From an uncultured bacterium (lineage in GTDB: Bacteria > Cyanobacteriota > Cyanobacteriia > Thermostichales > Thermostichaceae): 43,314 nt of DNA. Positions 1,071-36,314 of the stretch are shown in pieces. The first letter of the stretch is position 1; every line of letters begins with the position of its first letter. The stretch is taken from NCBI GenBank assembly GCA_964429885.1, contig CAYSEO010000002.1, forward strand, positions 17,072-60,385. Direction: 5' to 3'. The translations under genes were made by a program, and so were the position numbers. The notes below the pieces were generated by a model, which made no database searches, had not been told where the DNA came from, and saw only the letters and a program-made list of their open reading frames with translations.

Positions 1071-1097
1071 GAGGATCTGAGCCCCCAGCAACGGGAG

Positions 1098-2891: not shown

Positions 2892-2958
2892 ACAGGCAAT
2901 CCATTATGGCCCGATCTGCGTACTCTCCTTAGAGCCCTATGTTCTACTAGGAGAGCTG

Positions 2959-4085: not shown

Positions 4086-4284
4086 AGAATCGACGGAGGT
4101 ACGGATCCCCAGCGGATCCCGTCGGACAGGCGGGATCTGGGAGACTATGTCAACGCTTGTCTACGGAAAAACTGATCTGTGCTTGCTTCCAGTGGTTATC
4201 GAGTTACGTAGTATCGCGGTTCTCCCTGTACGAGAAGTGATGGAATATGGGTAGGTTCCCGAGAAGAGTAAGGTATCCATACAG

Positions 4285-16742: not shown

Positions 16743-16855
16743 GGCAGGGCCGGTGCAGTTCACCTCCATAGCTACTCTGTTAGTCCAGAGAGGATCAACC
16801 CACCACGGAGCCAGATCCGAGAGATGACTCGTCACCGAAGTGATGGGATGCTGCC

Positions 16856-17380: not shown

Positions 17381-17406
17381 TCCCAAGTTCTGATCTGATC
17401 CTTGCC

Positions 17407-18159
17407 ATGCCCAACGCCACCGCCCGCTCCATCCTGCCCCAAGCCCTCTATCCCTGGATCCATCACGGGGCCAAGCGTCTGTTTCCAGATTGCCTTTGGG
17501 AGCTTCCCGATCCAGTTCAAACCCAGATCGCCCTCACCTTTGATGATGGCCCTCACCCGGAGTACACCCCGGCCTTGCTCCAGGTGCTGGAGGGTTGGGG
17601 GATCCAGGCCAGCTTCTTTCTACTGGGACACCGAGTGGAACGATGGCCCCAGATCACCGCTCAGATCCGGGCCGCCGGTCACCATCTGGGCCTACATGGA
17701 TATCAACACCGCTCCTTCCCCACCTTATCGACAGAGGAACTGCAGCGATCTCTCCTCCAGACCCAAACCCTGATCGCCTCCGCCTGTCAGGAGAGCCCTG
17801 ATCAGTATCGGGATGTACGTCCCCCCAATGGCCTGTTTCTGCCCCAAACCCTCAGCCAACTCCGCCGTTGGGGCTATCGGCCTGTGATGTGGAGTATCGT
17901 GCCTGAGGACTGGATCCTGCCCCCCGTGGAGCTGGTGATCGAGCGGGTCTGCCGTCGGGTTTATCCTGGGGCGCTGATTGTGCTCCATGACGGAATGTAT
18001 GGGGGATCCCAGGTGGTGCAGACTGTGGAGCAGTTGATCCCGCGTTTACAGGACCAGGGATATCGTTTTCTCACCCTTGGGGACCCGAGAACTGGGGCGC
18101 CCGCGCCAGATCCAGGGCCTCAGAATCCGCTGTCAACCGTTCCAGATCCCAGATCTTGA
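17407..18159 (+). CDS. polysaccharide deacetylase (NodB homology domain)
   Basis: ALTFDDGPHPEYTP, FFLLG and LGLHGYQHRSF motifs. ATG at 17407; the ORF track starts at TTG 17377. The 3-prime tail overlaps the convergent WD40 gene. Confidence 0.85.
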   Translation: MPNATARSILPQALYPWIHHGAKRLFPDCLWELPDPVQTQIALTFDDGPHPEYTPALLQVLEGWGIQASFFLLGHRVERWPQITAQIRAAGHHLGLHGYQHRSFPTLSTEELQRSLLQTQTLIASACQESPDQYRDVRPPNGLFLPQTLSQLRRWGYRPVMWSIVPEDWILPPVELVIERVCRRVYPGALIVLHDGMYGGSQVVQTVEQLIPRLQDQGYRFLTLGDPRTGAPAPDPGPQNPLSTVPDPRS

Positions 18160-19237
18160 GGGTGCCATCGGAGCTACCTGTGATGATCGAGCGACCATCC
18201 GGGGTGATCAAGACGGTGCGCACATCCCGCTCATGTTCCGTCAGGGTATGGAGCAACAATCCCGTCCTCAGATCCCACAGCTTGATGGTGTTGTCGGCGC
18301 TGCCACTCACCAGATAGCGACCCTCAGGGCTAAAGGCCACAGCCCGGATCCAGGAGTCATGACCCATCAGGGTACGCATCAAGGCTCCCGTCTCCAGATC
18401 CCAGAGCTTGATCGTTCGATCAGAACTGCCACTCACCAGGATCTTGCCATCGGGACTCAGGGCCAGTGCCCGCACCCAGCTTTGATGCCCCGAGATCCGA
18501 GCGATCGGTTGCTGCGATCCCAGATCCCAGACCCGAATGCTAGCGTCCACAGGCTCGCTGTGATCCTCTGGTTGTTTCAGCCAGGATCCACTAAAAAAAG
18601 TCCAACCATCAGTGCTCAACACCAGCGAACGCACCCCCGCCTCCAGATCCGCCAGGGTGCCCGTCAGCTCGCCCGTCTCCAGATCCCAGAGCTTAATGCT
18701 GCGATCGGAGCTGCCACTGATCAGCCGCTGCCCGTCTGGGGTGATGGTCAGAGCAAAGATGTTACCGGAGTGATCCGTTAGGGTATACCGCAGTCGTTGC
18801 CGATCCAGATCCCAGACCTTGACCGTATCATCAGCGCTACCGCTTACCAGAGTCCGACCGTCAGGGCTGAGAGCTAGGGTATAGACCCGACCGCTATGAC
18901 CCTCCAGGGTATTCAACAGTTGCCCACTCTCCAGATCCCAGATCTTGAGGGTGTGATCGGCACTGGCACTGATCAAACGTTGTTGGTCAGGGGTGATCAC
19001 GATGGATTCCACCCGATCTTGATGTCCCGTCAGGGTGTGGAGCGCCTGGGTGGGATCGGTGGGTTGGTTTTGAGAGAGGTGTTGTTGTCGGAGAGCACAG
19101 ATCAGGCTGAAGGGCGTAACGCCGAACACGAGGATCCCGAGGGAGAGGGCGATGGGGGCCCAAATGTGAGTCAGGGGTCTGAGTCGAAGAGAGGTGGGAG
19201 GCTCCGTCAGAGCCTGAGGCAGTCTAGGTGAGGTCAT
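18071..19237 (-). CDS. WD40-repeat protein with N-terminal transmembrane anchor
   Basis: Seven or more repeats of the H..V.....SPDG..L.SGS.D.TIK(L/I/V)WDL pattern. Hydrophobic IWAPIALSLGILVFGVTPFSLICAL near the N-terminus. Confidence 0.9.
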   Translation of the reverse strand: MTSPRLPQALTEPPTSLRLRPLTHIWAPIALSLGILVFGVTPFSLICALRQQHLSQNQPTDPTQALHTLTGHQDRVESIVITPDQQRLISASADHTLKIWDLESGQLLNTLEGHSGRVYTLALSPDGRTLVSGSADDTVKVWDLDRQRLRYTLTDHSGNIFALTITPDGQRLISGSSDRSIKLWDLETGELTGTLADLEAGVRSLVLSTDGWTFFSGSWLKQPEDHSEPVDASIRVWDLGSQQPIARISGHQSWVRALALSPDGKILVSGSSDRTIKLWDLETGALMRTLMGHDSWIRAVAFSPEGRYLVSGSADNTIKLWDLRTGLLLHTLTEHERDVRTVLITPDGRSIITGSSDGTLKIWDLERLTADSEALDLARAPQFSGPQG

Positions 19238-19440
19238 GGGTGAGGCAGAGCGGAGTGATCATCTTTGAGCATAACGTGCCCACTTCTCCAGGGAATCTGC
19301 ATTTCTACGGGGATCCGAACATTGACAAAAGCGCCATTTTAGGGAAGCGGAGGACGAAAGCTAACCTCAAAATGACGCTGATGATTGAGAAAGGATCCAA
19401 AATGTGGCTCGCGAGCTCTGACGATCTCAGTGCAACCTCC

Positions 19441-19470
19441 GTGCGATCACGTGCGATCACGTGCGATCAT
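19441..19470. repeat. tandem decamer (GTGCGATCAC) x3
   Basis: gtgcgatcac gtgcgatcac gtgcgatcat read directly. It abuts repeat-element copy A, inside the predicted leader of the WD40 gene. Confidence 0.9.
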
Positions 19471-19471
19471 C

Positions 19472-19537
19472 AGTAGATCAGCAAAAACGTTTATACAGGC
19501 TATATCGTGCATGTCAAAGCAGTCTTGCTGATCTACT
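19472..19537 (-). repeat. dispersed 66-bp element, copy A (inverted ends, internal sigma70-like promoter facing the WD40 gene)
   Basis: The ends AGTAGATCAGCAA / TTGCTGATCTACT are a 13-bp inverted repeat. On the minus strand, TTGACA (19512..19517) and TATAAA (19490..19495) are separated by 16 nt. By eye roughly 80 percent identical to the copies at 29065 and 36212. Confidence 0.8.
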
Positions 19538-19612
19538 TAAACAGGAACAGGGAACAAACGGTGTCGAGGGTGGAGGTTCGGATCCGTGATGGGGAGTGTT
19601 CAGGCTGATCTA

Positions 19613-20023
19613 CTATTCAGACGCTTCAGGCTCCTCTACGGTCGTCACCCGATTCACCTGACCCTCCTCAACGGTGGTGGTGGTGGTGACCGATCCGCTC
19701 CGAGGACCCGAGGAGGTCTTGACGTAGGCGTCATCCTCAACGGTGCGGGTGGTAGAGGCAGAATTGCCCTGAGGACCTGAGTAGGTCTTGACGTAAGCGT
19801 CATCCTCAACGGTGCGAGTGGTGGAGGCAGAATTGCCCTCAGATCCGGTGGTGGTCCGGGTGAATGTCCCGTTCCCCGCCGATCGGGTGGTGGTAGCAGA
19901 GTTACCATTGGGTCCCGTGCGCACCACATCCGCAGACACTCGAGGAACACTGAGAGCACCCAATACCACCAGCGTGGTCAAGGCAGACAGTGCGTTCAAT
20001 GATCTCATCATGACCTCCTTCAA
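19613..20023 (-). CDS. secreted repeat protein (136 aa)
   Basis: Signal-peptide-like N-terminus (LNALSALTTLVVLGALSVPRVSA). 23-aa module GNSASTTRTVEDDAYVKT(Y/S)SGP(Q/R) repeated. Confidence 0.65.
   Translation of the reverse strand: MKEVMMRSLNALSALTTLVVLGALSVPRVSADVVRTGPNGNSATTTRSAGNGTFTRTTTGSEGNSASTTRTVEDDAYVKTYSGPQGNSASTTRTVEDDAYVKTSSGPRSGSVTTTTTVEEGQVNRVTTVEEPEASE
19715..19852. repeat. 69-bp tandem duplication inside the secreted-protein CDS
   Basis: Units start at 19715 and 19784 (ggtcttgacgta[g/a]gcgtcatcctcaacggtgcg...gaattgccct) and encode the 23-aa protein repeat. Confidence 0.85.
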
Positions 20024-20195
20024 GGCATGTCAGGTTTCCACAATCAGAATAGGATTTTGCCTGGGTGAGAACATCGAGCTGAGGTCATCGATAGCTCTCT
20101 AACCAAAGCCTTGATTGAGAATGACGAAAGTCATATTCAGGTGATCCTGCTCAGTTTGGCAGTTGATAACCTTGAGATCTGAAATAATATCTTCC

Positions 20196-20240
20196 AACAG
20201 ACCATCAGATCTCTTGCTTGAAGAGATCTGATGGTCTGTT
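20196..20240 (-). terminator. perfect 20-bp stem / 5-nt loop hairpin downstream of the methyltransferase operon
   Basis: AACAGACCATCAGATCTCTT-gcttg-AAGAGATCTGATGGTCTGTT, 17 nt after the stop at 20257. There is no clear U-tract, so an intrinsic-terminator call is tentative. Confidence 0.5.
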
Positions 20241-20256
20241 CATGTCAGCCGAAAAG

Positions 20257-21096
20257 TCAGCTGGACTTGCGGAAGTGGAAGATGCACCAGGATAGGTAGC
20301 CGTTCTTGCCCCCCTCGATCCAGTGACCCAGCCCAGTCTTCATCCGATCGATGTAGGCTTGACTGACCACAGACTTAACCTCTGACTCTCGCCGTTGAGT
20401 TTCCTGCAACACACGCGAGTAGTGATTCACCAGTTGCTGGGTGTGATCCTCACAGGTCACCTCCTCACAGCCCAACTGCCGTAAGGACTCTCGGTAGAAA
20501 CTGGGGGATCCCAGGGTCTCCAGATGGATCCGATCCAGGATCGGCTGCAGCACCCCCTCGGGACAATCATCCGCCTGCATGGGATCGGTGAACACAAAGC
20601 TGCCTCCCGGCTTTAGCACGCGGGCCACCTCCCGCAATACCTGGGGCCGATCCCCACTGTGGAGAATGGCATCCTGAGACCAGACCACATCAAATTGATC
20701 TGCCTCCGCCGGGATCTGCTCAAAGCTGCCATCGACCACCTGGATCCGGGAGGCCAGACCCTGCTCCTGGTTCATCTGTCGATCCCGGTCGTTCTCCACC
20801 TCGCTCAGGTTGAGAGCCATCACGCGACAGCCATAGGTCTTGGCCAGATAGCGAGCGGCACCGCCATAGCCCGCCCCGATATCCAACACCTGAGACTGGG
20901 CCGAGAGATCCAGTAATGAGGCCAACCGCTCCACCGTTCGTCGGCTAGCAGTGCGGATCTCCTCCGTCTCTGACTGGTAGAGACCGATGTGGATATCCTC
21001 CCCGCCCCAAATGGTGAAGTAGAAGGTATCCGCGTCGTGGCTGTTGTAATAGTCCCGCGCCACACTGACGGGTTGAGAGTAGTTTGTCGCCGTCAT
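20257..21096 (-). CDS. sarcosine/dimethylglycine N-methyltransferase (glycine betaine synthesis, second enzyme)
   Basis: SAM motif I VLDIGAGYGGAARYLA. N-terminus VARDYYNSHDADTFYFTIWGGEDIHIGLY resembles the dimethylglycine methyltransferases of halophilic cyanobacteria. It sits immediately downstream (8-nt gap) of the GSMT-like gene. Confidence 0.75.
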   Translation of the reverse strand: MTATNYSQPVSVARDYYNSHDADTFYFTIWGGEDIHIGLYQSETEEIRTASRRTVERLASLLDLSAQSQVLDIGAGYGGAARYLAKTYGCRVMALNLSEVENDRDRQMNQEQGLASRIQVVDGSFEQIPAEADQFDVVWSQDAILHSGDRPQVLREVARVLKPGGSFVFTDPMQADDCPEGVLQPILDRIHLETLGSPSFYRESLRQLGCEEVTCEDHTQQLVNHYSRVLQETQRRESEVKSVVSQAYIDRMKTGLGHWIEGGKNGYLSWCIFHFRKSS

Positions 21097-21104
21097 CTCG
21101 ATCC

Positions 21105-21932
21105 TTAGTTCACCAACTCGACATCTTCTTCGTAGTGCTTCTCCGCCACATGAATGAAGAAGTCCGGGGTCTCCTCCCGATAGGTCTCCTGGAAATCCCC
21201 ATAGGTTTCGATCTTCTGGAAGCCCACCTCATGCAACAGCCGCCGGGTGTACTCCTGGCGTAGAGGAAACATGTTGAGGTGGAACACCGACTGGTCCGGG
21301 AAAGCATAGCGGAAGCGGGCCAGACCGTCATCCATATACTCCGGCGCCACCTGCACATCCTCACCACAGTAGTAGTAGATATGCTTGCTGGAATAACCAT
21401 GATCCAGGATGGCGTCATAGTTGCGCTGATCTAGGATCAACAGACCATCGTGACGCAGGGCCGCGTAGAACTCCGCCAACGCCTTGCGCCGATCCTTCTC
21501 CGCAAACAGATGGGTGAAGGAGTTGCCCAGACAGATCACGGCATCGAACTCCCCATGCACATCCCGGTTCAGCCAGCGCCAGTCCGCATGGATCGTGCGC
21601 ATGATGTGACCATAGTGACGGGCATTGGCAAACGCCTTGGTCAACATCTCAGGGGATCCGTCAGCACTGACCACATCAAACCCCGCATTCAGCAGCCGCA
21701 CCGAATGAAATCCCGTCCCCGTGGCCACATCCAGGATCCGTTTCACCCCACGCTGTTTGAGCAGATCGATGAAGAAATCCCCCTCGCTCTCAGCCCGCAG
21801 ATCCCAGTTGATCAAGCGGTCCCACTTCTCCACAAAGGACTGCACGTACTCCAACTGGTAGTGGTCGGTATCCCGTACAGCGACCGGGTTGGTCCCAAAG
21901 TGTTGTTGAGTTCTATGGGTAGCAATTGACAT
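21105..21932 (-). CDS. glycine/sarcosine N-methyltransferase (glycine betaine synthesis, first enzyme)
   Basis: SAM motif ILDVATGTGFHSVRLL. Also VRDTDHYQLEYVQSFVEKWDRLINWDLRAESEGDFF, LGNSFTHLF, LILDQRNYD and YYYCGEDV, which look GNMT/GSMT-like. Confidence 0.75.
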   Translation of the reverse strand: MSIATHRTQQHFGTNPVAVRDTDHYQLEYVQSFVEKWDRLINWDLRAESEGDFFIDLLKQRGVKRILDVATGTGFHSVRLLNAGFDVVSADGSPEMLTKAFANARHYGHIMRTIHADWRWLNRDVHGEFDAVICLGNSFTHLFAEKDRRKALAEFYAALRHDGLLILDQRNYDAILDHGYSSKHIYYYCGEDVQVAPEYMDDGLARFRYAFPDQSVFHLNMFPLRQEYTRRLLHEVGFQKIETYGDFQETYREETPDFFIHVAEKHYEEDVELVN

Positions 21933-22698
21933 CTATTGATCCCTCACTAACGGTTTGCATCAGATCAGCAGCAGCCTTAGCCAGCCCGTGATCTTGATCT
22001 AGCGATCTGGAGCTTGCCCCTCAGTCCAGAACCCTGACTCTGCTCCCCGTATGGTGTTCCAGCACCCTCATCCTGCCACCTGAAACACCTCAGAGGTATC
22101 AACCGGATGATCGATCCCAGATCACGTTGAGCTCTATGAAATATCAAAGCCCAGATGGTTTCAAGACCGGATTGATCTTGAATAGTATACAGATCCACAG
22201 GATGACCTCCTGGCGCGGATCCCTGGTGTCACAAACAGAGGAGTTGAGGTATAGCGCTGCCCTAAACCTGCGAATAGGCAAACATATCGTGGCAGCAGAG
22301 CATTCTAGACTGAGTGATAAACATAGCCCTAGACCGGAGTTTAGACTACAACTTGAGATCCGGGCGGACAGTGAATGGACCCAAGATCACAAGCAATCCA
22401 TAAGATGTACAGTAAGAACATACCAGAAAGTTGTTGCGCCATCAACCTCCCTGAATCCAAAACTCCGGAGGATCCCGGTTTTCATTCGAGAATCGAGAAA
22501 AACCTACAATTAGACGTAGCCTGAACCCTGTGATCCCACCTATGCCTAGAATCGTCGTGGAGTTTAATGCGCGTTTAAGGTTGAATCTCAGATTCTATGC
22601 AGACTTCGCATCTACCTCAAGACAGAAGTTCAGGTTATGGAATCGGATCTTTTGCTCCATGCGGAGCCCAAAGATTCAGACCTGAGAGGGAGATCCGG

Positions 22699-22986
22699 TT
22701 AGCTGACATGCTTGAGGATCGCGTTGAGGTAGGCTTGTTCCAGGGTATGGCCCCAAGCGAACTGAGAGATGGAGCGGTGTTCTGGCAGGTAGGCCCAGCA
22801 GGGACCCTCGTGGGTGAAGAAATGACGCACCTCCCACCAGGATTCTCCCGGAGACACATCCTTAACCGCTCGCAGAAACCGACCCCGATGGCGGGCGATC
22901 CGTTCCTCCACGAAATAGGGTCCACAGAGGCTAAGTTCCTCGATGGCTGCAACGAACTCCGAGCGGGCTTTAGGATAGCGGGCCAT
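22699..22986 (-). CDS. hypothetical protein (95 aa)
   Basis: ATG at 22986 preceded by AGGAGA at suitable spacing. No recognised motif. It sits in an otherwise gene-poor 1.27-kb interval. Confidence 0.4.
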   Translation of the reverse strand: MARYPKARSEFVAAIEELSLCGPYFVEERIARHRGRFLRAVKDVSPGESWWEVRHFFTHEGPCWAYLPEHRSISQFAWGHTLEQAYLNAILKHVS

Positions 22987-23257
22987 TGGGCTGTTCTCCT
23001 CTCGATAGGTACAACAGGTCCCAGCCGGGAACCGACTCTCGACCATGGATGAATTGCTCGCCATTATAGGATCTGAGATCCTGAGTCGATCCCCCTAGGC
23101 AGCCCCAGTCACAGAGAGAGATCGACAGATCCCCCATGGGATCAGGCTCAGGGGCTAAGATCCTGGGAGTCTGTAGAGATCCTGTAGTTTTCGTCGAGTT
23201 GTCATGGACCCCTCTCAGTAACTGGACCACAGCGCCACTACCCCCCCTCGGCCTGAC

Positions 23258-24361
23258 GTGATGGCGGCGATGCAGACCGCTATGGCGGAGGCTTGGGGTA
23301 ACCCGTCCAGTTTGCATGCTTGGGGGGAGCGGGCGGCCCTGGCCATGGAGCGAGCTCGGCTGCAGGTGGCGGAGTTGATCGGGGCGGATCTGGATCAGAT
23401 CGTGTTCACCTCGGGGGGCACGGAGGCCAATAATCTGGCCCTATTTGGGTTGGCGGAGCTGGCCCCACAGCCTGGGCATCTGGTGATCTCCAGTGTCGAG
23501 CATTCCTCGGTGGAGAAGGTGGCGCTACGTCTGGCGACCCGAGGGTGGCGGATCACGCGGGTGCCGGTGACCTCTGAGGGGCTGGTTACGGTGGAGGCTC
23601 TGGAGGCAGCTCTACAACCGGATACCCTGGCGGTCTCGATCCTGCATGGCCAGAACGAGGTGGGGGTGGTGCAGCCGATCCAGGAGCTGGCTCAGGTGTG
23701 CCGTAGCCGGGGGGTGATCTTTCACTGTGATTGTGTGCAGACGGCGGGGCGGTTGCCCTTGGCCGTGACGGACCTGCAGGTGGATCTGATGTCGATCTCC
23801 TCCCATAAGCTGTATGGTCCTCAGGGAGTGGGGGCGCTCTACATCCGGCCTGGATTGGATCTGGCCGCTGTGGTGCAGGGGGGTGGACAGGAACGGGGGT
23901 TACGATCTGGGACCCAGGCGGTACCGGCCATTGTCGGTTTTGGTGTAGCGGCGGAATGGGCACAACGGGAGATGGCCACCGAGATCCCGCGTCTTCGATC
24001 TTTGCAGGGGTATCTTCATCAACGTCTAGCGGATCTGCCCTCCCTGCAACTGATCGGTCCTCAGGATCTGGCCCAACGTCTGCCCCATCACCTCAGCTAC
24101 TGTGTCGAGTCCACCACTGGCACAGCCTTGGTGCAGCAGATGAGTCAAGTCGGGATCGCCATCAGTGCCGGATCTGCCTGCAAGCGTGGCAAACTGGCCC
24201 CCAGTCCTGCTTTAGTGGCCATGGGGATCCCGCCAGAGCTCACCCTGGGAGCGATCCGGATCAGCTTGGGCAAGGCCACGACTCAGGGGGCTTTAGACTA
24301 CACGGCGACGACATTGCGATCTTTAGTCACCACAGCCTCAATGGCGGGTCTGGCTTCTTGA
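23258..24361 (+). CDS. cysteine desulfurase (NifS/IscS family, class V aminotransferase)
   Basis: GNPSSLHAWG, PLP-Lys motif SISSHKLYGPQGVGALY and active-site Cys loop SAGSACKRG. The conserved N-terminal LDHSATTPPRPDV continues in frame upstream to ATG 23204 but is cut by TAA at 23219..23221. Confidence 0.9.
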   Translation: MMAAMQTAMAEAWGNPSSLHAWGERAALAMERARLQVAELIGADLDQIVFTSGGTEANNLALFGLAELAPQPGHLVISSVEHSSVEKVALRLATRGWRITRVPVTSEGLVTVEALEAALQPDTLAVSILHGQNEVGVVQPIQELAQVCRSRGVIFHCDCVQTAGRLPLAVTDLQVDLMSISSHKLYGPQGVGALYIRPGLDLAAVVQGGGQERGLRSGTQAVPAIVGFGVAAEWAQREMATEIPRLRSLQGYLHQRLADLPSLQLIGPQDLAQRLPHHLSYCVESTTGTALVQQMSQVGIAISAGSACKRGKLAPSPALVAMGIPPELTLGAIRISLGKATTQGALDYTATTLRSLVTTASMAGLAS

Positions 24362-24465
24362 ATCGGATCACTGATCTGCTTAGACCCCAAAACTCCTTCT
24401 TGGGTAGACCGCTCGATCTGGGATCCAGAGGTTAGAGTGGTAGCGAGTATGCGGTCTTGGTCATT

Positions 24466-25080
24466 ATGACGGAGAATAGCCCCTACCAAGTGCTGGGTGT
24501 CAGTGAGGATGCCTCCTTCGAGGAGATCCAGGCAGCAAGAGAAAGCCTGCTCAGGCGGATGACTCCCCATAGTGAGGAGGAGCAGGAGCGGGTGGAACAA
24601 GCCTATGACATGATCCTGATGCAACGGCTCAAGTTGCGTAAGGAAGGAAAGATCGCGGTACCTGATCGGATCCGGTATGCGGAGCGGGCTTTAGAGGCGG
24701 AGGCGGAGGTCCCTACACCAGCTCATACTCATAAGATCGTATTGCCTGATTGGGCAGGGCGCTTACTGGATACCCCCGATCGCTCCGATATCTTTTTGCC
24801 AGGGGTGATCTTCGCTGTTCTCTGTCTGGGGGTCCTGACGGTCTCGGGGGAAACGTTCACGGTGATCCTATCCTTGGGACTGCTGAATAGTTTGTATTTC
24901 CTCTATCGCAAGGAGCGTCGATTCTTCCGTGCTCTGCTGATGGCTTTAGGGGGGCTGATCGGCGGGTGGTTGATCTCCACTGGGATCCTGAGTGTGGTGG
25001 CGGGTCAGAGCCTCAGTGCTCTGTGGGCTGTGGGGCTCACCTTCGTGGTGATGTGGTTGGTGACGGCCTTTCTTCGCTGA
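24466..25080 (+). CDS. J-like-domain membrane protein (resembles plant CPP1/CDF1-type chaperone-like proteins)
   Basis: N-terminal SPYQVLGVSEDASFEEIQAARESLL (J-domain helix I/II-like) plus C-terminal hydrophobic helices. ATG at 24466. Confidence 0.7.
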   Translation: MTENSPYQVLGVSEDASFEEIQAARESLLRRMTPHSEEEQERVEQAYDMILMQRLKLRKEGKIAVPDRIRYAERALEAEAEVPTPAHTHKIVLPDWAGRLLDTPDRSDIFLPGVIFAVLCLGVLTVSGETFTVILSLGLLNSLYFLYRKERRFFRALLMALGGLIGGWLISTGILSVVAGQSLSALWAVGLTFVVMWLVTAFLR

Positions 25081-25097
25081 GATCGAGATCGGCTGAA

Positions 25098-25124
25098 GCC
25101 CTCCTGGGAGGGGTTGGGGTGGGT
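25098..25124. repeat. GC-rich hairpin-containing short repeat (copy 1)
   Basis: GCCCTCCTGGGAGGGGTTGGGGTGGGT, 18 nt after the stop of the upstream gene. A near-identical copy is at 31499..31526. CCCTCC/GGAGGG can form a stem. Confidence 0.6.
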
Positions 25125-25306
25125 TAACCCTAGGGGAATCGCAGTGATCCGCATACACGAGAGGAGCCAGACCTGTAGATCGAGCTATTGCCGAGGAGCG
25201 CTCCAGGACTGTATTGTTGATAACCATATTATCCACTCTGGGATGAGGCGTGATCTGGCTACCACTCACCTCAGGGGGATCTGCCCGCTAGCCCCTCTGG
25301 AAACCT

Positions 25307-26608
25307 ATGCTGGCCTCTCAGAAAAAATCGTGCCTCACCCCGGCCAAGCGGCTACAGCAGCTCCCGGCCTATGTGTTTGCCCGTCTGGATGAGCTGAAGG
25401 TGCGGGCTCGCAATCAGGGATTGGATCTGATCGATCTGGGTATGGGCAATCCCGATGGTCCTACTCCTCCGACAGTGGTGGAGGCAGCCCAACGAGCGAT
25501 CCAGGACAGCACTAATCATGGCTATCCGCCGTTTGAGGGCACGAGCAGCTTTCGGACTGCGATCACGGAATGGTACCAGCGGCGCTATGGAGTGGAGCTG
25601 GATCCTGAGGGGGAAGCTCTGCCGTTGTTGGGATCCAAGGAAGGTCTCACTCATCTAGCCCTGGCCTATGTGGATCCGGGGGATCTAGTCCTCGTCCCTA
25701 GCCCGGCCTACCCCGCCCACTTTCGGGGACCCTTGATCGCGGGAGCCGAGATCTATCCCTTACCCATGGGGCCTGAACGGAATTGGCTGATCGATGTCGA
25801 TGCGATTCCGTCTGAGGTTGCGGCACGGGCTCGGGTGCTTTACTTCAACTACCCCAACAATCCCACTACAGCGGTGGCTCCACGGGAGCTGTTTGAGCGG
25901 ATCGTTCAGTTTGCCCATCGGCATGATCTGATCCTGGTGCATGATCTGTGTTACGCGGAGCTGGCTTTCGATGGCTATCAGCCCACCAGTCTGTTAGAGA
26001 TCCCAGGGGCCAAGGAGATCGGGGTCGAGTTTCACACCCTTTCAAAAACCTACAATATGGCCGGTTGGCGAGTCGGTTTTGTGGTGGGCAACCGTCAGAT
26101 CATCCAGAGCTTGCGGACCCTAAAAACGAACCTAGATTATGGTATCTTTGCGGCGATCCAGACGGCAGCGGAGACAGCTCTAAGACTCCCGGATCACTAC
26201 CTCCATTCCGTGCAGCAACGCTATCAAGCCCGCCGCGATCTAATGATCGATCGTCTCTCTCAATTGGGCTGGCAGATCACGCCGCCTCAGGCCACCATGT
26301 ATCTCTGGATCCCGACACCCATTTTGGCCAATGGGGAGCATGAGGGATCAACAGAGTTCGCCCTACAGGTGTTGGAGAAGACCGGTGTCGTCGTGACCCC
26401 TGGCAATGCCTTTGGAGAAGGAGGAGAGGGCTATGTGCGGATCAGTCTGATCGCGGATGGGGATCGGCTGGGGGAGGCGATCGATCGGTGGAGTGCTGCC
26501 GGGATCGTCTATCAGAAACATCCTCGATCCATGGGTTTGGCTCATAGCCAGAGGCACGATCTTTCTGAACGAGTGGATGAGTTGCTCTGGCGGGATCCAG
26601 GCCAGTGA
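25307..26608 (+). CDS. PLP-dependent aminotransferase, class I/II (AspC / DapL-related)
   Basis: LPAYVFARLDELK, GMGNPDGPTP, NYPNNPT and PLP-Lys motif TLSKTYNMAGWRVGF. Confidence 0.88.
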   Translation: MLASQKKSCLTPAKRLQQLPAYVFARLDELKVRARNQGLDLIDLGMGNPDGPTPPTVVEAAQRAIQDSTNHGYPPFEGTSSFRTAITEWYQRRYGVELDPEGEALPLLGSKEGLTHLALAYVDPGDLVLVPSPAYPAHFRGPLIAGAEIYPLPMGPERNWLIDVDAIPSEVAARARVLYFNYPNNPTTAVAPRELFERIVQFAHRHDLILVHDLCYAELAFDGYQPTSLLEIPGAKEIGVEFHTLSKTYNMAGWRVGFVVGNRQIIQSLRTLKTNLDYGIFAAIQTAAETALRLPDHYLHSVQQRYQARRDLMIDRLSQLGWQITPPQATMYLWIPTPILANGEHEGSTEFALQVLEKTGVVVTPGNAFGEGGEGYVRISLIADGDRLGEAIDRWSAAGIVYQKHPRSMGLAHSQRHDLSERVDELLWRDPGQ

Positions 26609-26726
26609 TCGCAGATCTCCACAGATCGGTGCTCTGATCGTCGGTGACGGTTTGGGTTACTGTTAACATCAGGCTGCCTAACCATAAGCCAACACATCTT
26701 GACCTTGGAAACCTCTCGATAGCCCC

Positions 26727-28385
26727 ATGACTGGACAGTCCCTCACGATCTACGACACCACCCTGCGAGACGGCGCCCAACGGGAAGGTCTGGCCCTCTC
26801 CATCGAGGATAAGCTCCAGATCGCCAAGCTCCTGGACCAACTGGGGATCCCGTTTATCGAGGGGGGTTGGCCCGGTGCCAATCCTAAAGATGTGCAATTC
26901 TTCCTGCAGCTGAAAGAGGAGCCCCTCATCCAGGCAGAGATCGTCCCCTTCTGCTCCACCCGTCGTCCCCAACGCTCCGCCCAAGACGATCCCATGTTTC
27001 AGGCGATTCTGGCGGCAGGCACCCGCTACGTCACCGTCTTCGGCAAATCCTGGGATCTGCATGTCACCGACAGCCTCAACACCACCCTGGCGGAGAACCT
27101 GGAGATGATCCGGGACACTATCGTCTATCTGCGCTCCCAACAGCGACGGGTGATCTATGATGCCGAACACTGGTTTGATGCCTATCGTTACAATCCCGAG
27201 TATGCCCTGGAGACCCTGAGGACGGCAGCGGAGGCGGGTGCGCAATGGCTAGTTCTCTGTGATACCAATGGTGGTCGTTTACCCACGGAGATCGCCCAGA
27301 TCACCCAGGGGGTCCTGGAGGAAGCCCATCACCTGCAGGGGGCTCAGATCGGCATTCATACCCACAATGACTCGGGTACGGCGGTGGCCAATGCCCTAGC
27401 TGCAGTCCAAACCGGAGCCACCATGATCCAGGGCACGATCAATGGCTATGGGGAACGCTGTGGCAATGCCAATCTCTGTAGTCTGATCCCCAATCTGGAG
27501 CTGAAGCTGGGTTATCACTGTTTGCCGGAGGGCAAGTTAACCCGACTGACGGAAACCTCCCGAGCCGTGAGTGAGGTGGTCAATCTAGCTCCCGATGATC
27601 ATGCCCCGTTTGTGGGACGCTCCGCCTTCGCCCACAAGGGAGGGATCCATGTCAGTGCCGTCCGTAAGAATCCCATCACCTACGAACATATCCAACCGGA
27701 TCAGGTGGGCAATGTCAGACGGATCGTGGTTTCCGAACAGGCGGGCATGAGCAATGTGTTGACCAAGGTGGCACACTTTGGTTTCGAGATGGAGAAACAG
27801 GATCCCAGAGCCCAACAGATCCTCAAGCATTTGAAACAGCTGGAGATGCAAGGGTACCAATTCGAAGCAGCAGAGGCCAGCTTTGAGCTATTGGTGCGGG
27901 GGTGTCTGGGATTGCGGCCTGAGTTCTTTGAGCTGATCCATTTCAACGTTACCTCCAACACCGATTCCACATGGAGCAGTCTGGGCTGGGATCTGGAGGA
28001 ACAGCAACCTGAGGTCCTCTCTCTGGCGGCGATCAAGGTGCGGGTGGAGGATCAGGTGCGGGTGACTGCTGGTGAAGGCAATGGTCCGGTGGCGGCGATG
28101 GACAGTGCCCTGCGCAAGGCCTTATTGGAGTTCTATCCGCAGTTGAAGCAAACCCATCTCTCCGATTACAAGGTCCGGATCCTGGATGGTCGGGCGGGCA
28201 CCTCAGCTCGAACTCGGGTATTGATCGAGTTCAGTGATGGCCAACATCGGTGGACCACGGTGGGAGTCTCCCCCAACATCATCGAAGCCTCCTGTCGGGC
28301 CCTAACGGAAGGATTGGACTATGCCCTGATGAAATTCGCAGGCAAAATCCAGGATCCGATCCCCTCTTCCTCCCTTTCCAGCTAA
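26727..28385 (+). CDS. cimA: (R)-citramalate synthase / 2-isopropylmalate-synthase-family protein
   Basis: LTIYDTTLRDGAQREG, IHTHNDSGTAVAN and GERCGNANL. The size (about 550 aa) and the C-terminal LeuA-dimer-like regulatory domain are typical of the cyanobacterial CimA type. Confidence 0.85.
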   Translation: MTGQSLTIYDTTLRDGAQREGLALSIEDKLQIAKLLDQLGIPFIEGGWPGANPKDVQFFLQLKEEPLIQAEIVPFCSTRRPQRSAQDDPMFQAILAAGTRYVTVFGKSWDLHVTDSLNTTLAENLEMIRDTIVYLRSQQRRVIYDAEHWFDAYRYNPEYALETLRTAAEAGAQWLVLCDTNGGRLPTEIAQITQGVLEEAHHLQGAQIGIHTHNDSGTAVANALAAVQTGATMIQGTINGYGERCGNANLCSLIPNLELKLGYHCLPEGKLTRLTETSRAVSEVVNLAPDDHAPFVGRSAFAHKGGIHVSAVRKNPITYEHIQPDQVGNVRRIVVSEQAGMSNVLTKVAHFGFEMEKQDPRAQQILKHLKQLEMQGYQFEAAEASFELLVRGCLGLRPEFFELIHFNVTSNTDSTWSSLGWDLEEQQPEVLSLAAIKVRVEDQVRVTAGEGNGPVAAMDSALRKALLEFYPQLKQTHLSDYKVRILDGRAGTSARTRVLIEFSDGQHRWTTVGVSPNIIEASCRALTEGLDYALMKFAGKIQDPIPSSSLSS

Positions 28386-28394
28386 GGGATCTCC

Positions 28395-28982
28395 ATGGCA
28401 CTCCCTCACCCCTCCCAGTCGATCCTAGAATTTTGGTTTGGCTCCATTACGGATCCTGACTATGGCCAACCTCGTCAAGCCTGGTTCATCAAAGATCCCC
28501 AATTTGATCACCAGATCCAGGCGCAATTCTTCGGGATCTACGCTCAGGCTGCTACAGGTCAGTTACAGGATTGGCAGGACCATCCCCTCTCTGGTTTGGC
28601 ATTGGTGATCGTTTTAGATCAGTTCTCTCGTAATCTATTCCGACGTCAGCCCCAAGCTTTTGCCACGGATCCGATGGCTCGGGCTGCCGCAAAACAAGCC
28701 CTAGATCGGGGATTTGATCAGGAGCTGCTGCCGGTACAGCGATGGTTTCTCTATCTGCCCTTTGAACATAGTGAGGATCTAGAAGATCAACATCGATCGG
28801 TGGAACTCTTCTCGCAACTGGATCAGTCTGATCCAGAAAACGCCAAGTGTCTGGCCTATGCGAAACGTCATCTGGAGGTGATCCAGAGATTCGGTCGATT
28901 CCCCCACCGCAATCGGATCCTGGGCCGGACCTCCACTGCAGCGGAGATCGAGTTTTTGCAACAACCTGGATCATCCTTCTAG
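28395..28982 (+). CDS. DUF924-family protein
   Basis: ILEFWFG, VLDQFSRNLFR, FLYLPFEHSE and IQRFGRFPHRNRILGRTST are the characteristic DUF924 blocks. Confidence 0.85.
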   Translation: MALPHPSQSILEFWFGSITDPDYGQPRQAWFIKDPQFDHQIQAQFFGIYAQAATGQLQDWQDHPLSGLALVIVLDQFSRNLFRRQPQAFATDPMARAAAKQALDRGFDQELLPVQRWFLYLPFEHSEDLEDQHRSVELFSQLDQSDPENAKCLAYAKRHLEVIQRFGRFPHRNRILGRTSTAAEIEFLQQPGSSF

Positions 28983-29064
28983 AAATAGTTTTGTAGACAA
29001 CAAGTCAGCAGATATTGCAGTCGCTCCATTCTTTAGGATATGACGATCGTTTGACCTGAGGCTA

Positions 29065-29130
29065 AGTAGATCGACAAAATTACTTTGACATACACTATAT
29101 AGCCTGTATAAACGTTTTTGCTGATCGACT
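29065..29130 (+). repeat. dispersed 66-bp element, copy B (promoter facing the transketolase-like gene)
   Basis: AGTAGATCGACAAAATTACTTTGACATACACTATATAGCCTGTATAAACGTTTTTGCTGATCGACT. TTGACA (29085..29090) and TATAAA (29107..29112) are separated by 16 nt. Confidence 0.8.
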
Positions 29131-29441
29131 TACGCCTGATCCGGGCGTCTCAATCGGAGTGGCGACTGCAATAACTCTTAGACCTGTGCGGGAGTCATCG
29201 TGTCTGTCTGCTCAATTTGGGACTCTGATCTGGCCTGGGGAGAGCTAAGCTGCTTGCCGAGATAGAGGGGGAACTGGATCCTGAGCTAACTTCGGATCTC
29301 ACAGGGCTTGGTTTACAGTGATAGGACAGCCTGATCACGGGCTGCTTCGCAGATGTATGGATGGGGGGTCGATCTGAACTCCGACTCGATCTGATCCTCT
29401 GACCGACCCCATCGCTCTCTGTCGTGCCGCAAGGAACCTCC

Positions 29442-31355
29442 ATGACTATCGCAACCGCTCCTTTCCCCATTGATCTGGATGCCTACCAACGGATCAGCCT
29501 CGATCCGGCCACTACCACCCTCACCCCCGAACAGAAACAGGCGCTGCGGGCCAACATTCAGCTGTGTCGGGATACCATCGTCTTCTTCACCGCCACGGGC
29601 GCAGCGAAGGGCTTGGGGGGACATACCGGAGGTCCCTACGACACGGTGCCGGAGGTGATGATCCTGGATGCTCTATTCCGGGGTAAGCCCGAGGCTTTTG
29701 TGCCGATCTTCTTTGATGAGGCGGGACACCGGGTGGCGACCCAGTATCTCATGTCAGCTCTGGATGGCGATCTGCCCCTGGAAAAGCTGGTGCATTATCG
29801 GGAGGCCCATCACCATCTGCCGGGACACCCAGAGAAGGGGTTGACCCCTGGGGTGAAGTTTAGCTCCGGTCGTCTCGGTCACATGTGGCCCTATGTCAAC
29901 GGTGTGGCTCTGGCTAATCCTGGCAAAGCGGTGTTTTGTCTCGGATCGGACGGATCTCAGCAGGAGGGTAATGATGCGGAGGCGGCTCGTCTGGCTGTAG
30001 CCCAACACCTGAATGTCAAGCTGCTGATCGATGACAACGATGTCACCATTGCTGGACATCCCTCTAACTACCTGCCGGGATTTAGTGTGGCTCAGACGTT
30101 GCGGGGCCATGGGCTAACGGTTCTAGAGGGGGATGGTGAGGATCTGGACGGCCTCTACCAGCGCATCTGTCAAGCGATCGAGACACCGGGGCCGGTGGCT
30201 GTGATCTGCAAGCGCAAGATGTCTGTGGGCATTGAGGGCATTGAAGGATCTACCCATGGCCATGATGTGATCCCTTTGGATAAAGCATTGACCTTCCTGG
30301 AGTCTCGGGGCCGAACGGAGGCGGTCGAGTATCTCAAGAGCCTGGAGAAGCCCAAGAATCCCTATACCTTCATGGGATCTAGCAGCAATGTGGGCTCTAA
30401 CCGCAATATCTTTGGCGATACGGTGGTCAAGATCCTGGGTCGCATGAGTGAGACGGAGCGCAAAGAGAAGGTGTTGGTGGTGGACAACGATCTGGAAGGA
30501 TCCTGTGGGCTGAAACAGATCCGACAGGCTCACCCAGAGGTGTTCATCAGCGGCGGCATCATGGAGCGGGGCAACCTATCTGCTGCGGCTGGCTTTGGCA
30601 TGGAGCAGGGCAAGCAAGGCATCTATGCCACCTTTAGTGCCTTCTTAGAGATGGTGGTGTCTGAAATCACCATGTCTCGTCTCAATTACTCCAACATTCT
30701 CTGTCATTTCTCCCATGCTGGGGTGGATGATATGGCGGACAATACCTGTCACTTCGGCATCAATAATATGTTTGCCGATAACGGCTTGGATGATGGCCAC
30801 GAGACTCGCCTGTATTTTCCTGGGGATGGTCATCAGATGGCGGCTTGTGTGGAGGCGATCTTCAATGATCCGGGCCTGCGATTTATCTTCTCCACCCGCT
30901 CTAAGGTGCCCTACATTCTGGATGAATCGGGCAAGGAGTTCTTTGGTGAGGGCTATACCTTTACCCCCGGCAAGGATGAGGTGATCCGGGAAGGAACGGC
31001 AGGTTACATTGTCGCCTTTGGGGATGCTCTGTATCGCTCGGTGGATGCAGTGGAGCGCCTCAAGCAACAGGGAATCAGCGTAGGACTGATCAACAAGCCC
31101 ACTCTAAATGTGGTGGATGAGGACATGATTGCCAAGATCGGGACCTCTGGGTTTGTGCTGGTGGTGGAGCCCTTCAACCGGCGCACAGGTCTAGGCAGCC
31201 GTTTTGGCTCCTGGCTACTGGAGCGGGATCTGACGCCGAAATATGCTTACCTGGGCACTTACCGAGAAGGATCCGGTGGTCTTTGGGAGCAGTACCCCCA
31301 CCAGGGCATCGATCCGGACAGCATCATGGCTAAGGTGAAGCAGCTAGCGGGCTAG
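29442..31355 (+). CDS. transketolase-family protein (divergent, about 637 aa)
   Basis: GGHTGGPYD in place of the canonical SGHPG. ThDP-binding GSDGSQQEGNDAEAARLA...LIDDNDVTIAG. Pyrimidine-binding and C-terminal domains are present. ATG at 29442 follows AAGGAACC. Confidence 0.85.
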   Translation: MTIATAPFPIDLDAYQRISLDPATTTLTPEQKQALRANIQLCRDTIVFFTATGAAKGLGGHTGGPYDTVPEVMILDALFRGKPEAFVPIFFDEAGHRVATQYLMSALDGDLPLEKLVHYREAHHHLPGHPEKGLTPGVKFSSGRLGHMWPYVNGVALANPGKAVFCLGSDGSQQEGNDAEAARLAVAQHLNVKLLIDDNDVTIAGHPSNYLPGFSVAQTLRGHGLTVLEGDGEDLDGLYQRICQAIETPGPVAVICKRKMSVGIEGIEGSTHGHDVIPLDKALTFLESRGRTEAVEYLKSLEKPKNPYTFMGSSSNVGSNRNIFGDTVVKILGRMSETERKEKVLVVDNDLEGSCGLKQIRQAHPEVFISGGIMERGNLSAAAGFGMEQGKQGIYATFSAFLEMVVSEITMSRLNYSNILCHFSHAGVDDMADNTCHFGINNMFADNGLDDGHETRLYFPGDGHQMAACVEAIFNDPGLRFIFSTRSKVPYILDESGKEFFGEGYTFTPGKDEVIREGTAGYIVAFGDALYRSVDAVERLKQQGISVGLINKPTLNVVDEDMIAKIGTSGFVLVVEPFNRRTGLGSRFGSWLLERDLTPKYAYLGTYREGSGGLWEQYPHQGIDPDSIMAKVKQLAG

Positions 31356-31369
31356 GCTGTGCATACTCA

Positions 31370-31415
31370 GGGCTTGATCGAGATACGGAGGTTAATCTTT
31401 GGCTCGATCGAGCCC
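31370..31415 (+). terminator. 13-bp stem hairpin after the transketolase-like gene
   Basis: GGGCTTGATCGAG-N20-CTCGATCGAGCCC with one G-U wobble, 15 nt after the stop. No U-tract follows. Confidence 0.4.
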
Positions 31416-31498
31416 CCTTCAGCTCCTAGGATCTGAAAACCTTTTAGGGCTACCTGATACACAGATCTCTCATCCCATCTCTCATTCATCCTCTTGTT

Positions 31499-31526
31499 CC
31501 CCTCCTGGGAGGGGCTAGGGGTGGGT
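31499..31526. repeat. GC-rich hairpin-containing short repeat (copy 2)
   Basis: CCCCTCCTGGGAGGGGCTAGGGGTGGGT; compare 25098..25124. Confidence 0.6.
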
Positions 31527-31590
31527 CAGATCACCGAACTATGTATACACGGTACCCTAGTGGGGTATTGCTGGGTTGAGGATCTTGGGG

Positions 31591-32046
31591 ATGGATATTC
31601 GTATTGATGATCTACAAGGGCCTGAGATCGCTAACTTGTTAGACGAACATCTGCAGGATATGGCCTTCCACTCCCCTCCAGAAAGTTGCCATGCCTTGGA
31701 TCTGGAGGGGTTGCGGGTGCCCGAGGTTACTGTCTGGACGCTGTGGCAGGACAGCGAGCTTTTGGGGTGTGGTGCCCTAAAGGAATTGGATCCTACCCAT
31801 GGGGAGATCAAATCCATGCGAACCGCTAGAGCCCATCGCAGAAAGGGGATCGCCTCTCGTCTTCTGAGCCATATTTTGGAGGAGTCCCGCCGCCGTTCCT
31901 ATCGACGAGTCAGCCTTGAGACCGGCTCCATGGTCGCCTTCACCCCGGCTCATGCGCTCTACACCAGGTTTGGATTTCAGCTCTGTCAACCGTTTGCTAC
32001 CTATAAAGAGGATCCCAATAGCATCTTCATGACTCTAGAATTGTGA
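31591..32046 (+). CDS. GNAT-family N-acetyltransferase
   Basis: Acetyl-CoA motif A region HRRKGIASRLLSHIL and a beta-bulge region GCGALKEL...GEIKSMRT. ATG at 31591. Confidence 0.85.
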   Translation: MDIRIDDLQGPEIANLLDEHLQDMAFHSPPESCHALDLEGLRVPEVTVWTLWQDSELLGCGALKELDPTHGEIKSMRTARAHRRKGIASRLLSHILEESRRRSYRRVSLETGSMVAFTPAHALYTRFGFQLCQPFATYKEDPNSIFMTLEL

Positions 32047-32082
32047 TGATATCGCTCAGGATCATGAGCTCCTATCCCATTC

Positions 32083-32709
32083 TCAATCAAACTCCACAGA
32101 CCATTGGCTGGGCCGATCATGGTAGCGAAACATGCGCTGGATCTGATCGGCGGTGACCCGTCCAATGGAGAGCTCAGGAAGAGCATCTCGATAAAAGAAT
32201 TGGGCTGCAAGGGTCTCCACGTAATCGGGCTGCTCCTGACTCAGGATCTCGCAGTGAAAGAATAGTTTGTAGATATGGAATGGATAGGGGGGATAGTGGG
32301 CATGTTGGCTGCGATCATACACAGCTAACAGCCGAACGGTTCGAGTTCGATAACCTGCCTCCTCCAGGATCTCTCGCTCCACCGCCTGACTGGGTCGATC
32401 GTTGACATCGGCCCAACCTCCGGGCAGAGTCCAACGTCCGTCAGATCTCTCCTGCACCAAGAGGATCTGTCCCTCCTGGAATACCACGCCCCGCACATCC
32501 ACCTTGGGAGTGGCATAGCCCGACTCTTGTGCGAACAGATCGATGATCTGCTCAGAGGTCCAGCCGGAGGGGGTGGAGAGGATCTGGGCTGCGATCTCCC
32601 GGATCGACTCATAGCGCTCCACATCGTAGGGACTCTCGGCGAAATGCAGTCCATTCTGAGCGATCCCCTGGAGCTGTCTGGCCCATTGCAACCATTGAGG
32701 ATCCATCAC
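32083..32709 (-). CDS. NUDIX hydrolase with N-terminal helical NUDIX-associated domain
   Basis: Nudix box GGWADVNDRPSQAVEREILEEAGY. N-terminal WLQWARQLQGIAQNGLHFAESPYDVERYE. Confidence 0.9.
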   Translation of the reverse strand: MMDPQWLQWARQLQGIAQNGLHFAESPYDVERYESIREIAAQILSTPSGWTSEQIIDLFAQESGYATPKVDVRGVVFQEGQILLVQERSDGRWTLPGGWADVNDRPSQAVEREILEEAGYRTRTVRLLAVYDRSQHAHYPPYPFHIYKLFFHCEILSQEQPDYVETLAAQFFYRDALPELSIGRVTADQIQRMFRYHDRPSQWSVEFD

Positions 32710-33392
32710 ACCTTCTCCGCTGCCATGCGCACGAACCGATCCTGTTTATACCGTTGCTGAGCGATCACCTGAAAGCCGCAATGCTCCAACAGCCAGACCA
32801 GATCATCGGCACTGAACCGATTATGCTCATAGAAATGGGTGAACCAATCATCAAGCAACTCCAGATCCGTATCCGTGGCAAAGATCTGATCCACCTCTTC
32901 CTCACTAAAGTAGAGGACCAGGGGAGCCCGGATCCAGTCCACCAACATCAATCTGCCACCGGGTTTCAGCAAACGATGGGCTGTTTGTAGCAAACGGACA
33001 GGCTGGATCATCTCGTGTAACACCACGACGGATTGAGCCACATCCATAGAATGGGGTTCCAGGGATAGCTGTGGATCATGTAGGTCCGCCTTCAGCAGTT
33101 GGACTTGCGGCAGATCCGCCAACAGCTCCCGAGCCTTCTCCAACATATAAGGCATCAGATCGACGCCGAAGAGATGAGCTTGAGGGTAGCGATCAGCCCA
33201 GAGCTGCAGGGCCAATCCCGGACCTGTGCCCAGATCCAGCAGCCGAGGCTGATCTCCGAGACAGGGGTGGATATGTTGATTCCAAAACGACCAGAAGTCC
33301 TCATTGAATCGACCTGGGGTGGTCTGTACCATCAGATCGGAGAACTCAGGACCCCGATGGTGTTGGGTCAGCAGGCTAAGGGTGTCGGGCAT
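32706..33392 (-). CDS. class I SAM-dependent methyltransferase
   Basis: Motif I LLDLGTGPGLA, post-I FGVDL, and motif LKPGGRLMLVD. A 4-nt overlap with the downstream Nudix gene suggests an operon. Confidence 0.85.
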   Translation of the reverse strand: MPDTLSLLTQHHRGPEFSDLMVQTTPGRFNEDFWSFWNQHIHPCLGDQPRLLDLGTGPGLALQLWADRYPQAHLFGVDLMPYMLEKARELLADLPQVQLLKADLHDPQLSLEPHSMDVAQSVVVLHEMIQPVRLLQTAHRLLKPGGRLMLVDWIRAPLVLYFSEEEVDQIFATDTDLELLDDWFTHFYEHNRFSADDLVWLLEHCGFQVIAQQRYKQDRFVRMAAEKV

Positions 33393-36066: not shown

Positions 36067-36211
36067 TCATGATCGGTGATCTGTTTATTAGCTGAGCAGA
36101 TTACTCAAGACAGAATCGTTAAATCGGATACGAGAGGCAGGATTAGGGAATGACGCAGGCCAACCCATCGATGGCTGCTAGTACTCGCCTCAGAGCACCT
36201 ATCGCTTGATA

Positions 36212-36275
36212 AGTAGTATCGGCAAAATTGCTTTGATATACAGTATAGAGTCTGTATAAACGTTTTTGCTGATCT
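36212..36275 (+). repeat. dispersed 66-bp element, copy C (promoter points antisense into 36315..36974)
   Basis: AGTAGTATCGGCAAAATTGCTTTGATATACAGTATAGAGTCTGTATAAACGTTTTTGCTGATCT. TTGATA (36233..36238) and TATAAA (36255..36260) are separated by 16 nt. Confidence 0.75.
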
Positions 36276-36314
36276 CCTTATCGGGTTCTCGGTGAACCAT
36301 AGATCTTCCCCCGA

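Follow-up and report, generated by a model that had tools for sequence, protein, structure and literature searches.

Small dispersed repeats in intergenic DNA

MITEs that carry sigma-70-like promoters are well documented, with the Correia elements, MITEAba12, BrickBuilt and QMITE1 among the examples, and such MITEs also supply IHF sites and RNase-sensitive hairpins to the genes beside them (PMC10969869). The Correia elements of Neisseria, also designated CREE or NEMIS, are small, non-coding and intergenic, are bounded by terminal inverted repeats and by TA borders, contain sigma-70-like promoters from which adjacent genes can be expressed, and fold into a hairpin at the RNA level (PMC10969869). 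These features recur in a short repeat that is present in three copies, designated A, B and C, in the 43,314-nt stretch of cyanobacterial DNA analysed here (the window), with the qualification that the repeat carries only a promoter-like motif at the corresponding place, that TA is present at both ends in two of the three copies, and that its hairpin is a predicted one. The two also differ in several respects: Correia elements are about 100–200 bp long, with repeats of ~26 bp and an IHF site, and number more than 100 copies per genome, whereas the present element spans 70 bp, is known from three copies, has no sequence similarity to the Correia elements and resides in another host phylum.

The same general architecture, and likely the same consequence for neighbouring genes, is found in MITEAba12, BrickBuilt, QMITE1, SonMITE_1, Nezha and the MITEs of Microcystis and Anabaena; cyanobacteria are thus among the known hosts of such elements. 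The present element is shorter than most MITEs on record and matched no known family in the collections searched. A blastn search with the element against plasmids and phages gave no match, and neither did a search of viral contigs with a degenerate pattern of the left arm and -35 motif. The exact 20-mer TATAAACGTTTTTGCTGATC of the invariant core was matched once in 185,579 species genomes, three times in JGI metagenomes and not at all in IMG/VR; because the matching sequences bear no similarity to the element outside the 20-mer, these matches are ascribed to chance, leaving no genuine match in the public genomes and metagenomes searched.

A further point of comparison is provided by the GTAG-tagged REP dimers, or REPINs, which resemble the element in having GTAG...CTAC outer ends, a long hairpin built from two inverted halves, and a position shortly past the 3' end of an upstream gene (PMC3733652). 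GTAG-tagged REPs also are found in cyanobacteria, and the same pattern of placement has been described for REPs between unidirectional genes (PMC3733652). The element departs from REPINs in that its halves are not stem-loops, its composition is AT-rich and its tag is base-paired. A REP unit, by definition, folds into a stem-loop of its own with a stem of 5-13 bp, leaves its tag unpaired, and is accompanied by a RAYT gene and by tens to hundreds of further copies.

A palindromic repeat in three copies

The three copies are present at the places given in the original prediction. Copy A lies on the minus strand at 19470..19539 (70 nt; the minus strand reads TAAGTAGATCAGCAA...TTGCTGATCTACTGA), copy B, the copy named in the original prediction, lies on the plus strand at 29063..29132 (70 nt), and copy C lies on the plus strand at 36210..36280 (71 nt). 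All three had been proposed by eye as a 66-bp element with a whole-length similarity of ~80%; the unit turns out to be slightly longer (70–71 nt), and identities measured in the alignment of the three copies are 87% for A and B, 83% for A and C, and 87% for B and C. When the copies are aligned together with 20-nt flanks, the conserved block opens with TAAGTAG and closes with CT(T/G)A; the flanks are unrelated and the edges are abrupt. The letters of one 23-mer, CTGTATAAACGTTTTTGCTGATC, are the same in all three copies. Allowing up to 3 mismatches, this 23-mer has no further site in the 43-kb window and no match in 100 shuffles, and an nhmmer profile built from the three copies recovered no additional copy or half copy with a meaningful E-value in the window. 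The element has a GC content of 31–39%, compared with 55% for the window, and no copy contains an ORF.

The repeat is real and lies far beyond chance. An identity of 83–87% over 70 nt, combined with sharp borders, unrelated downstream genes and occurrence in both orientations, shows A, B and C to be copies of a single sequence; they are homologous units rather than promoters that evolved independently. The original prediction had likewise held the independent evolution of three promoters to be less likely, and the measured identity, sharp edges and unrelated flanks bear out that judgement.

The element as a whole is an imperfect palindrome, composed of 29-nt arms that are 76% complementary and separated by an 8-nt gap. 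At the ends of copy A complementarity extends over 13 of 13 positions (AGTAGATCAGCAA / TTGCTGATCTACT), in agreement with the inverted ends originally reported for this copy; the ends of the others are degraded, with 2 and 1 mismatches to AGTAGATCAGCAA in the two terminal 13-mers of copy B and a 1-nt insertion in the left arm of copy C. The outer termini take the form GTAG...CTAC, the right end being CGAC in B and CTCC in C. Beyond them lie TA/TA borders in B and C and TA/GA borders in A, to be read with the caution that TA is itself palindromic and merely prolongs the inverted repeat.

The predicted hairpin is most stable in copy A (-27.4 kcal/mol, z -5.8), followed by copy C (-21.5 kcal/mol, z -4.0) and copy B (-12.0 kcal/mol, z -1.6), which has the weakest palindrome of the three; energies on the opposite strand are similar for each copy. 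In the three-copy alignment, compensatory change is seen at one of 26 predicted pairs; pairing is lost in six cells, and covariation contributes an unfavourable term. With compensatory change nearly absent, the palindrome looks inherited and not actively maintained, as far as three sequences, which say little on this point, allow one to judge. Variation is distributed unevenly: none of the 15 variable columns lies within the 23 nt on the right (an invariant run this long has a permutation P of about 0.02), and most of them belong to the left arm or to the spacer that separates the promoter-like hexamers. Conservation covers both hexamers, -35 and -10, and the 14 nt that follow the latter.

An intrinsic terminator was rejected because no T-run, the DNA equivalent of a U-tract, follows the hairpin, and terminator prediction calls none. 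Searched against Rfam, the window gave no match at gathering score, and 28980-29450, the region that holds copy B, gave none even with the threshold relaxed to E<=5.

A promoter-like core

Within each copy, a -35-like hexamer and a -10-like hexamer, located by consensus scan, are separated by a spacer of 16 nt, as had been predicted. In copy A, on the minus strand, TTGACA extends from 19517 to 19512 and TATAAA from 19495 to 19490; in copy B, on the plus strand, TTGACA occupies 29085-29090 and TATAAA 29107-29112; and in copy C, also on the plus strand, the corresponding hexamers are TTGATA at 36233-36238 and TATAAA at 36255-36260. The -35 thus agrees with the consensus at 6/6 positions in A and B and at 5/6 in C, and the -10 agrees at 5/6 in every copy, lacking the final T. 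When both strands of the 43-kb window were scanned for TTGACA-N16-18-TATAAT, four sites matched the sigma-70 consensus at 10 or more of 12 positions, and three of these four are copies A, B and C (scores of 11, 11 and 10); composition-preserving shuffles yielded 0.24 sites at >=11/12. The promoter-like motif is therefore a genuine and unusual property of the element.

The final T is one of the two most conserved positions of the -10 hexamer. Promoter prediction omits all three copies because it requires this T and the copies read TATAAA. The original description of a near-consensus sigma70 promoter consequently holds numerically, at 11/12, and is overstated in that the -10 TATAAA is without the conserved final T. 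Judged from the motif, promoter activity is possible; its strength cannot be assumed and may be low or nil. An sRNA gene downstream of the motif was also considered and was rejected, as the three copies show no conservation past the element.

Gene context

The window represents an ordinary cyanobacterial chromosome, with genes for PriA, DnaB, L9, LpxD, aminotransferases and a LeuA-like enzyme, and no transposase or recombinase genes were found in its 43 kb. Two of these genes merit separate mention. PriA is distributed over two ORFs within 423-2891 on the plus strand, the first (423-1070) encoding the 3'-DNA-binding domain and the second (1098-2891) the helicase domain together with the C-terminal domain; the gene could truly be split, or a frameshift or sequencing error could account for the arrangement. 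The DnaB helicase gene (12495-14267, minus strand) contains an intein splicing domain.

All copies are intergenic and lie between co-directional genes, and both orientations relative to the neighbouring genes occur. Copy A is positioned 73 nt past the upstream stop codon and 232 nt from the start of a gene for a WD40 protein, and copy B 80 nt past the upstream stop and 309 nt from the start of a gene for a transketolase-like protein; in each case the promoter-like side faces the gene downstream. Copy C is located 34 nt beyond the stop of a 217/219-aa ORF on the other strand and about 152 nt from the next start, and its promoter-like side points into the 3' end of this membrane-anchored ORF, antisense to it. 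The orientations given in the original prediction, with A toward the WD40 gene, B toward the transketolase gene and C antisense into a membrane-protein gene, are thus correct. No functional link is evident among the downstream genes.

The surroundings of copy A contain several further repeats. A solo 11-mer, AGTAGATCAGC, identical to the terminal repeat of the element and recovered as a weak nhmmer match, lies at 19602..19614 on the minus strand, where it overlaps the stop codon of a 136-aa ORF 62 nt upstream of copy A, whose orientation it shares; in a GATC-rich genome it could have arisen by chance, or it could be the remnant of a half-site. A perfect tandem repeat of 3 x 10 nt, CGTGCGATCA, at 19440..19469 abuts the inner end of copy A. 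The 136-aa ORF itself (19613-20023, minus strand) has a signal-peptide-like N-terminus and 2.4 tandem Thr/Ser-rich repeats of 69 nt (23 aa), belongs to no Pfam family and falls within a lineage-specific segment. Farther on, at 20196-20240, a perfect inverted repeat with a 20-bp stem and a 5-nt loop sits in an AT-rich gap just past a pair of methyltransferase genes. The pair, at 20257-21932 on the minus strand, encodes two adjoining SAM-dependent methyltransferases of 279 and 275 aa that may constitute a glycine/sarcosine-type methylation pathway.

Comparison with related genomes

Relatives of the window were sought through protein clusters at 90% identity, and all those used share its GATC-rich signature. 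One contig, L011, is 99.97% identical to the window, contains copy C and is the only contig syntenic at site C. The other relatives comprise three TARA scaffolds (L010, L013 and L014) with 86-93% identity, a contig from GCA_964641365.1 (L012) with 86% identity, and two contigs from SRR27364934 (L009 and L007; 84% nt; 61% aa). The sources in which relatives were encountered include the TARA metagenome SAMEA6036885 and the run SRR6462993. No copy of the element was found in the 61.5 kb of these relatives, L011 excluded, a comparison of density that is biased by the window having been picked for its copies.

The transketolase-like protein is 77-81% identical across cyanobacteria generally, and its closest named homologues, at ~80% identity, belong to Leptolyngbyaceae, Elainellaceae and Nodosilinea MAGs. 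The loci of its best named matches (L005 and L006) were tried as an orthologous comparison and set aside, being HIP1-rich, not syntenic and too distant. When homologues of the WD40 protein were sought, WD40 repeats of the generic type overwhelmed the result, and no orthologue emerged.

At site B, homology with L009 and L010 starts at 29277; upstream of this point all three genomes differ and have other neighbouring genes. The ~165 nt that follow (29277-29441), which form the leader before the transketolase-like gene, are strongly conserved in the relatives at 84% and 93%, where the element is lacking, and it follows from this conservation in element-free relatives that the native control region of the transketolase-like gene excludes copy B. 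The leader contains a hairpin of the form CAGCC...GGGCTG with a variable loop and has no Rfam match; it could be a conserved promoter and 5'-UTR or an undescribed cis-regulatory RNA. At site A, homology of the WD40 gene with L014 ends 45 nt before the ATG. Between the two sites, the methyltransferase pair and the LeuA-like gene are syntenic with L012 and L013, the homology running to 20257 and 28405 respectively before the genomes diverge, and the methyltransferase pair is kept in L012.

Between these homologous stretches lie two junction segments, 19283-20256 at site A and 28406-29276 at site B, with no homology in the relatives. In each, a small ORF is followed after about 75-80 nt by the element, and a further 145-190 nt complete the segment. 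The search for empty sites proposed in the original prediction thus gave no clean one: the element is absent from the relatives at A and B, where the whole junction differs.

Gene order is heavily scrambled with respect to relatives that are 86-93% identical. The synteny blocks 16812-19282, 20257/22700-28405 and 29277-33014 have other flanking genes in the TARA and GCA_964641365.1 contigs. In L013, contractile-injection-system genes (CIS tube, VgrG-like and PAAR) at 591-4181 adjoin the block syntenic with 22700-28405, and a fragment of the gene next in line matches positions 17-211 of the window.

The composition of the window is striking. GATC occurs 944 times, or ~22 per kb, which is 5.7x expectation, and the flanking bases show no preference; the HIP1 motif (GCGATCGC) is absent. 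Close relatives are GATC-rich too, with 16-26 GATC/kb, and the Leptolyngbya-like loci L005 and L006 are HIP1-rich instead. GATC was reported to be generally under-represented in the Group A and Group B cyanobacteria of Elhai 2015 (PMC4390886), and against that background the present lineage looks unusual.

Competing explanations

The GTAG...CTAC termini, which resemble head-to-head dimers of GTAG-tagged REPs, raise the question of whether the element might be a REP/REPIN-like sequence copied by a RAYT-type (Y1) transposase; it would act mainly through a 3'-UTR hairpin by which the upstream transcript is stabilised or processed, and its promoter motif would be incidental. The placement of the copies would suit this origin, 34-80 nt past a co-directional upstream stop and 152-309 nt from the next start, as would the long hairpin that folds on both strands and the GTAG-containing 11-mer across the stop codon at 19602-19614. 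We nevertheless regard such an origin as unlikely. Folded separately, the six half-units reach 0 to -2.3 kcal/mol, values that shuffled sequences match, and a REP dimer was rejected because its halves would be expected to fold on their own; REP tags are unpaired, and here GTAG pairs with CTAC within the long hairpin; and the element is AT-rich, not GC-rich. The near-lack of covariation (1/26 pairs, with 6 cells broken), the weak hairpin of copy B (z -1.6) and the missing U-tract also count against such an origin, and a RAYT gene was not seen within 43 kb. The shared regulator-binding module, which the original prediction had offered as an alternative, would here be a complete promoter flanked by operator half-sites, through which a lineage-specific regulator would co-control the WD40 gene, the transketolase-like gene and a third transcript. 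In its favour, the copies contain the window's best sigma-70-like matches; the spacer is less conserved than the -35, the -10 and the initially transcribed region; the promoter-like motif lies between inverted half-sites; and A and B face downstream genes. Set against this, 70 nt that are 83-87% identical and end abruptly speak of copying and not of convergent regulatory sites, the functions of the genes are unrelated, and copy C runs the wrong way, antisense into a convergent ORF. Relatives at 84-93% identity moreover keep the ~165-nt leader of the transketolase-like gene, in two of them, and the 45 nt directly before the WD40 gene, all without the element. The arms are asymmetric as well, with a variable left half-site and an invariant right one, unlike a symmetric operator, and a distance of about 53 bp between half-sites is atypical for an operator. 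An NtcA site was among the candidates tried, and no site of the GTA-N8-TAC type is present. Taken together, these observations leave the regulatory module weak and, in our estimation, decidedly improbable.

The junction context and the arrangement of A and B suggest another proposal, in which the repeats mark, and perhaps cause, rearrangement junctions, either as the ends of a composite or cassette-like unit or as substrates for inversion. Copies A and B, which are 88% complementary, constitute an inverted, outward-facing pair separated by 9523 nt, and a small lineage-specific ORF comes shortly before each of them. Relatives retain synteny across the inner block 20257-28405 and lack both segments made up of a small ORF and the element. 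The breakpoints of homology, however, lie 145-190 nt off the element edges, the cargo consists of ordinary housekeeping-type genes, copy C is solo and has the opposite orientation to its ORF, and no recombinase gene occurs in the window. An integron attC site was also rejected, the core sites GTTRRRY and RYYYAAC being absent from both strands of every copy and of the 10 nt beside it. A role at junctions thus appears highly unlikely. Its most specific form would make the repeats the ends or recombination sites of an attC-less cassette-like unit (small ORF plus 70-bp palindrome), or else would place them at the inverted ends of a composite unit of ~9.7 kb (19470-29132); either way, the repeats would drive the scrambling of gene order relative to the 86-93% identical relatives. 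We give this version only a very slim chance; were it true, a ready-made promoter would be delivered to the gene beyond the junction.

A proposed MITE-like element and its possible effects

The explanation that we favour, with somewhat better than even confidence, is that of a non-autonomous dispersed repeat of the MITE-like kind, specific to this lineage, whose copies share common descent and whose internal promoter is possibly active. It corresponds to the mobile, promoter-carrying, MITE-like branch of the original prediction, which best fits the terminal inverted repeats, the TA on both sides of two of the three copies, the non-coding, AT-rich and intergenic character of the element, its occurrence in both orientations, its internal promoter-like motif and its absence from relatives; mobility is what we infer from these features. 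Several features count against a MITE-like nature. Only three copies and no parent IS are known, a transposase gene is missing from the window, and 70 bp falls at the small end for a MITE. The invariance of the right arm, when the other ends are degraded in B and C, would be odd if a transposase binds both ends. Finally, the TA borders need not reflect a target-site duplication, given the TA/GA borders of copy A and the fact that TA extends the palindrome.

If the element is MITE-like, its architecture can be written as TA|AGTAGATCAGCAA...TTGCTGATCTACT|TA, about 70 bp in all, and a single ancestral sequence would have been copied into intergenic DNA to give the three copies. The likely agent would be a transposase that acts on the terminal repeats and has its gene in another part of the genome, and a TA target, if the TA borders represent its duplication, would fit an enzyme of the IS630/Tc1-mariner type. 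As a side effect, TTGACA-N16-TATAAA may fire weakly rightwards out of the element. Copies A and B might in this way provide an added upstream promoter for the WD40 and transketolase-like genes and copy C might give rise to an antisense transcript, and read-through from the upstream gene would place the long hairpin in RNA.

For annotation, the copies are better flagged as repeats than as regulon sites. The element would constitute a new family of a general kind that is already known, and it opens no new class of mechanism. If the MITE-like reading is confirmed, the element would represent a new and very small MITE-like family in a poorly sampled and compositionally odd cyanobacterial lineage, and would add another mobile repeat to those that bring promoter-like sequence and RNA hairpins to adjacent genes.
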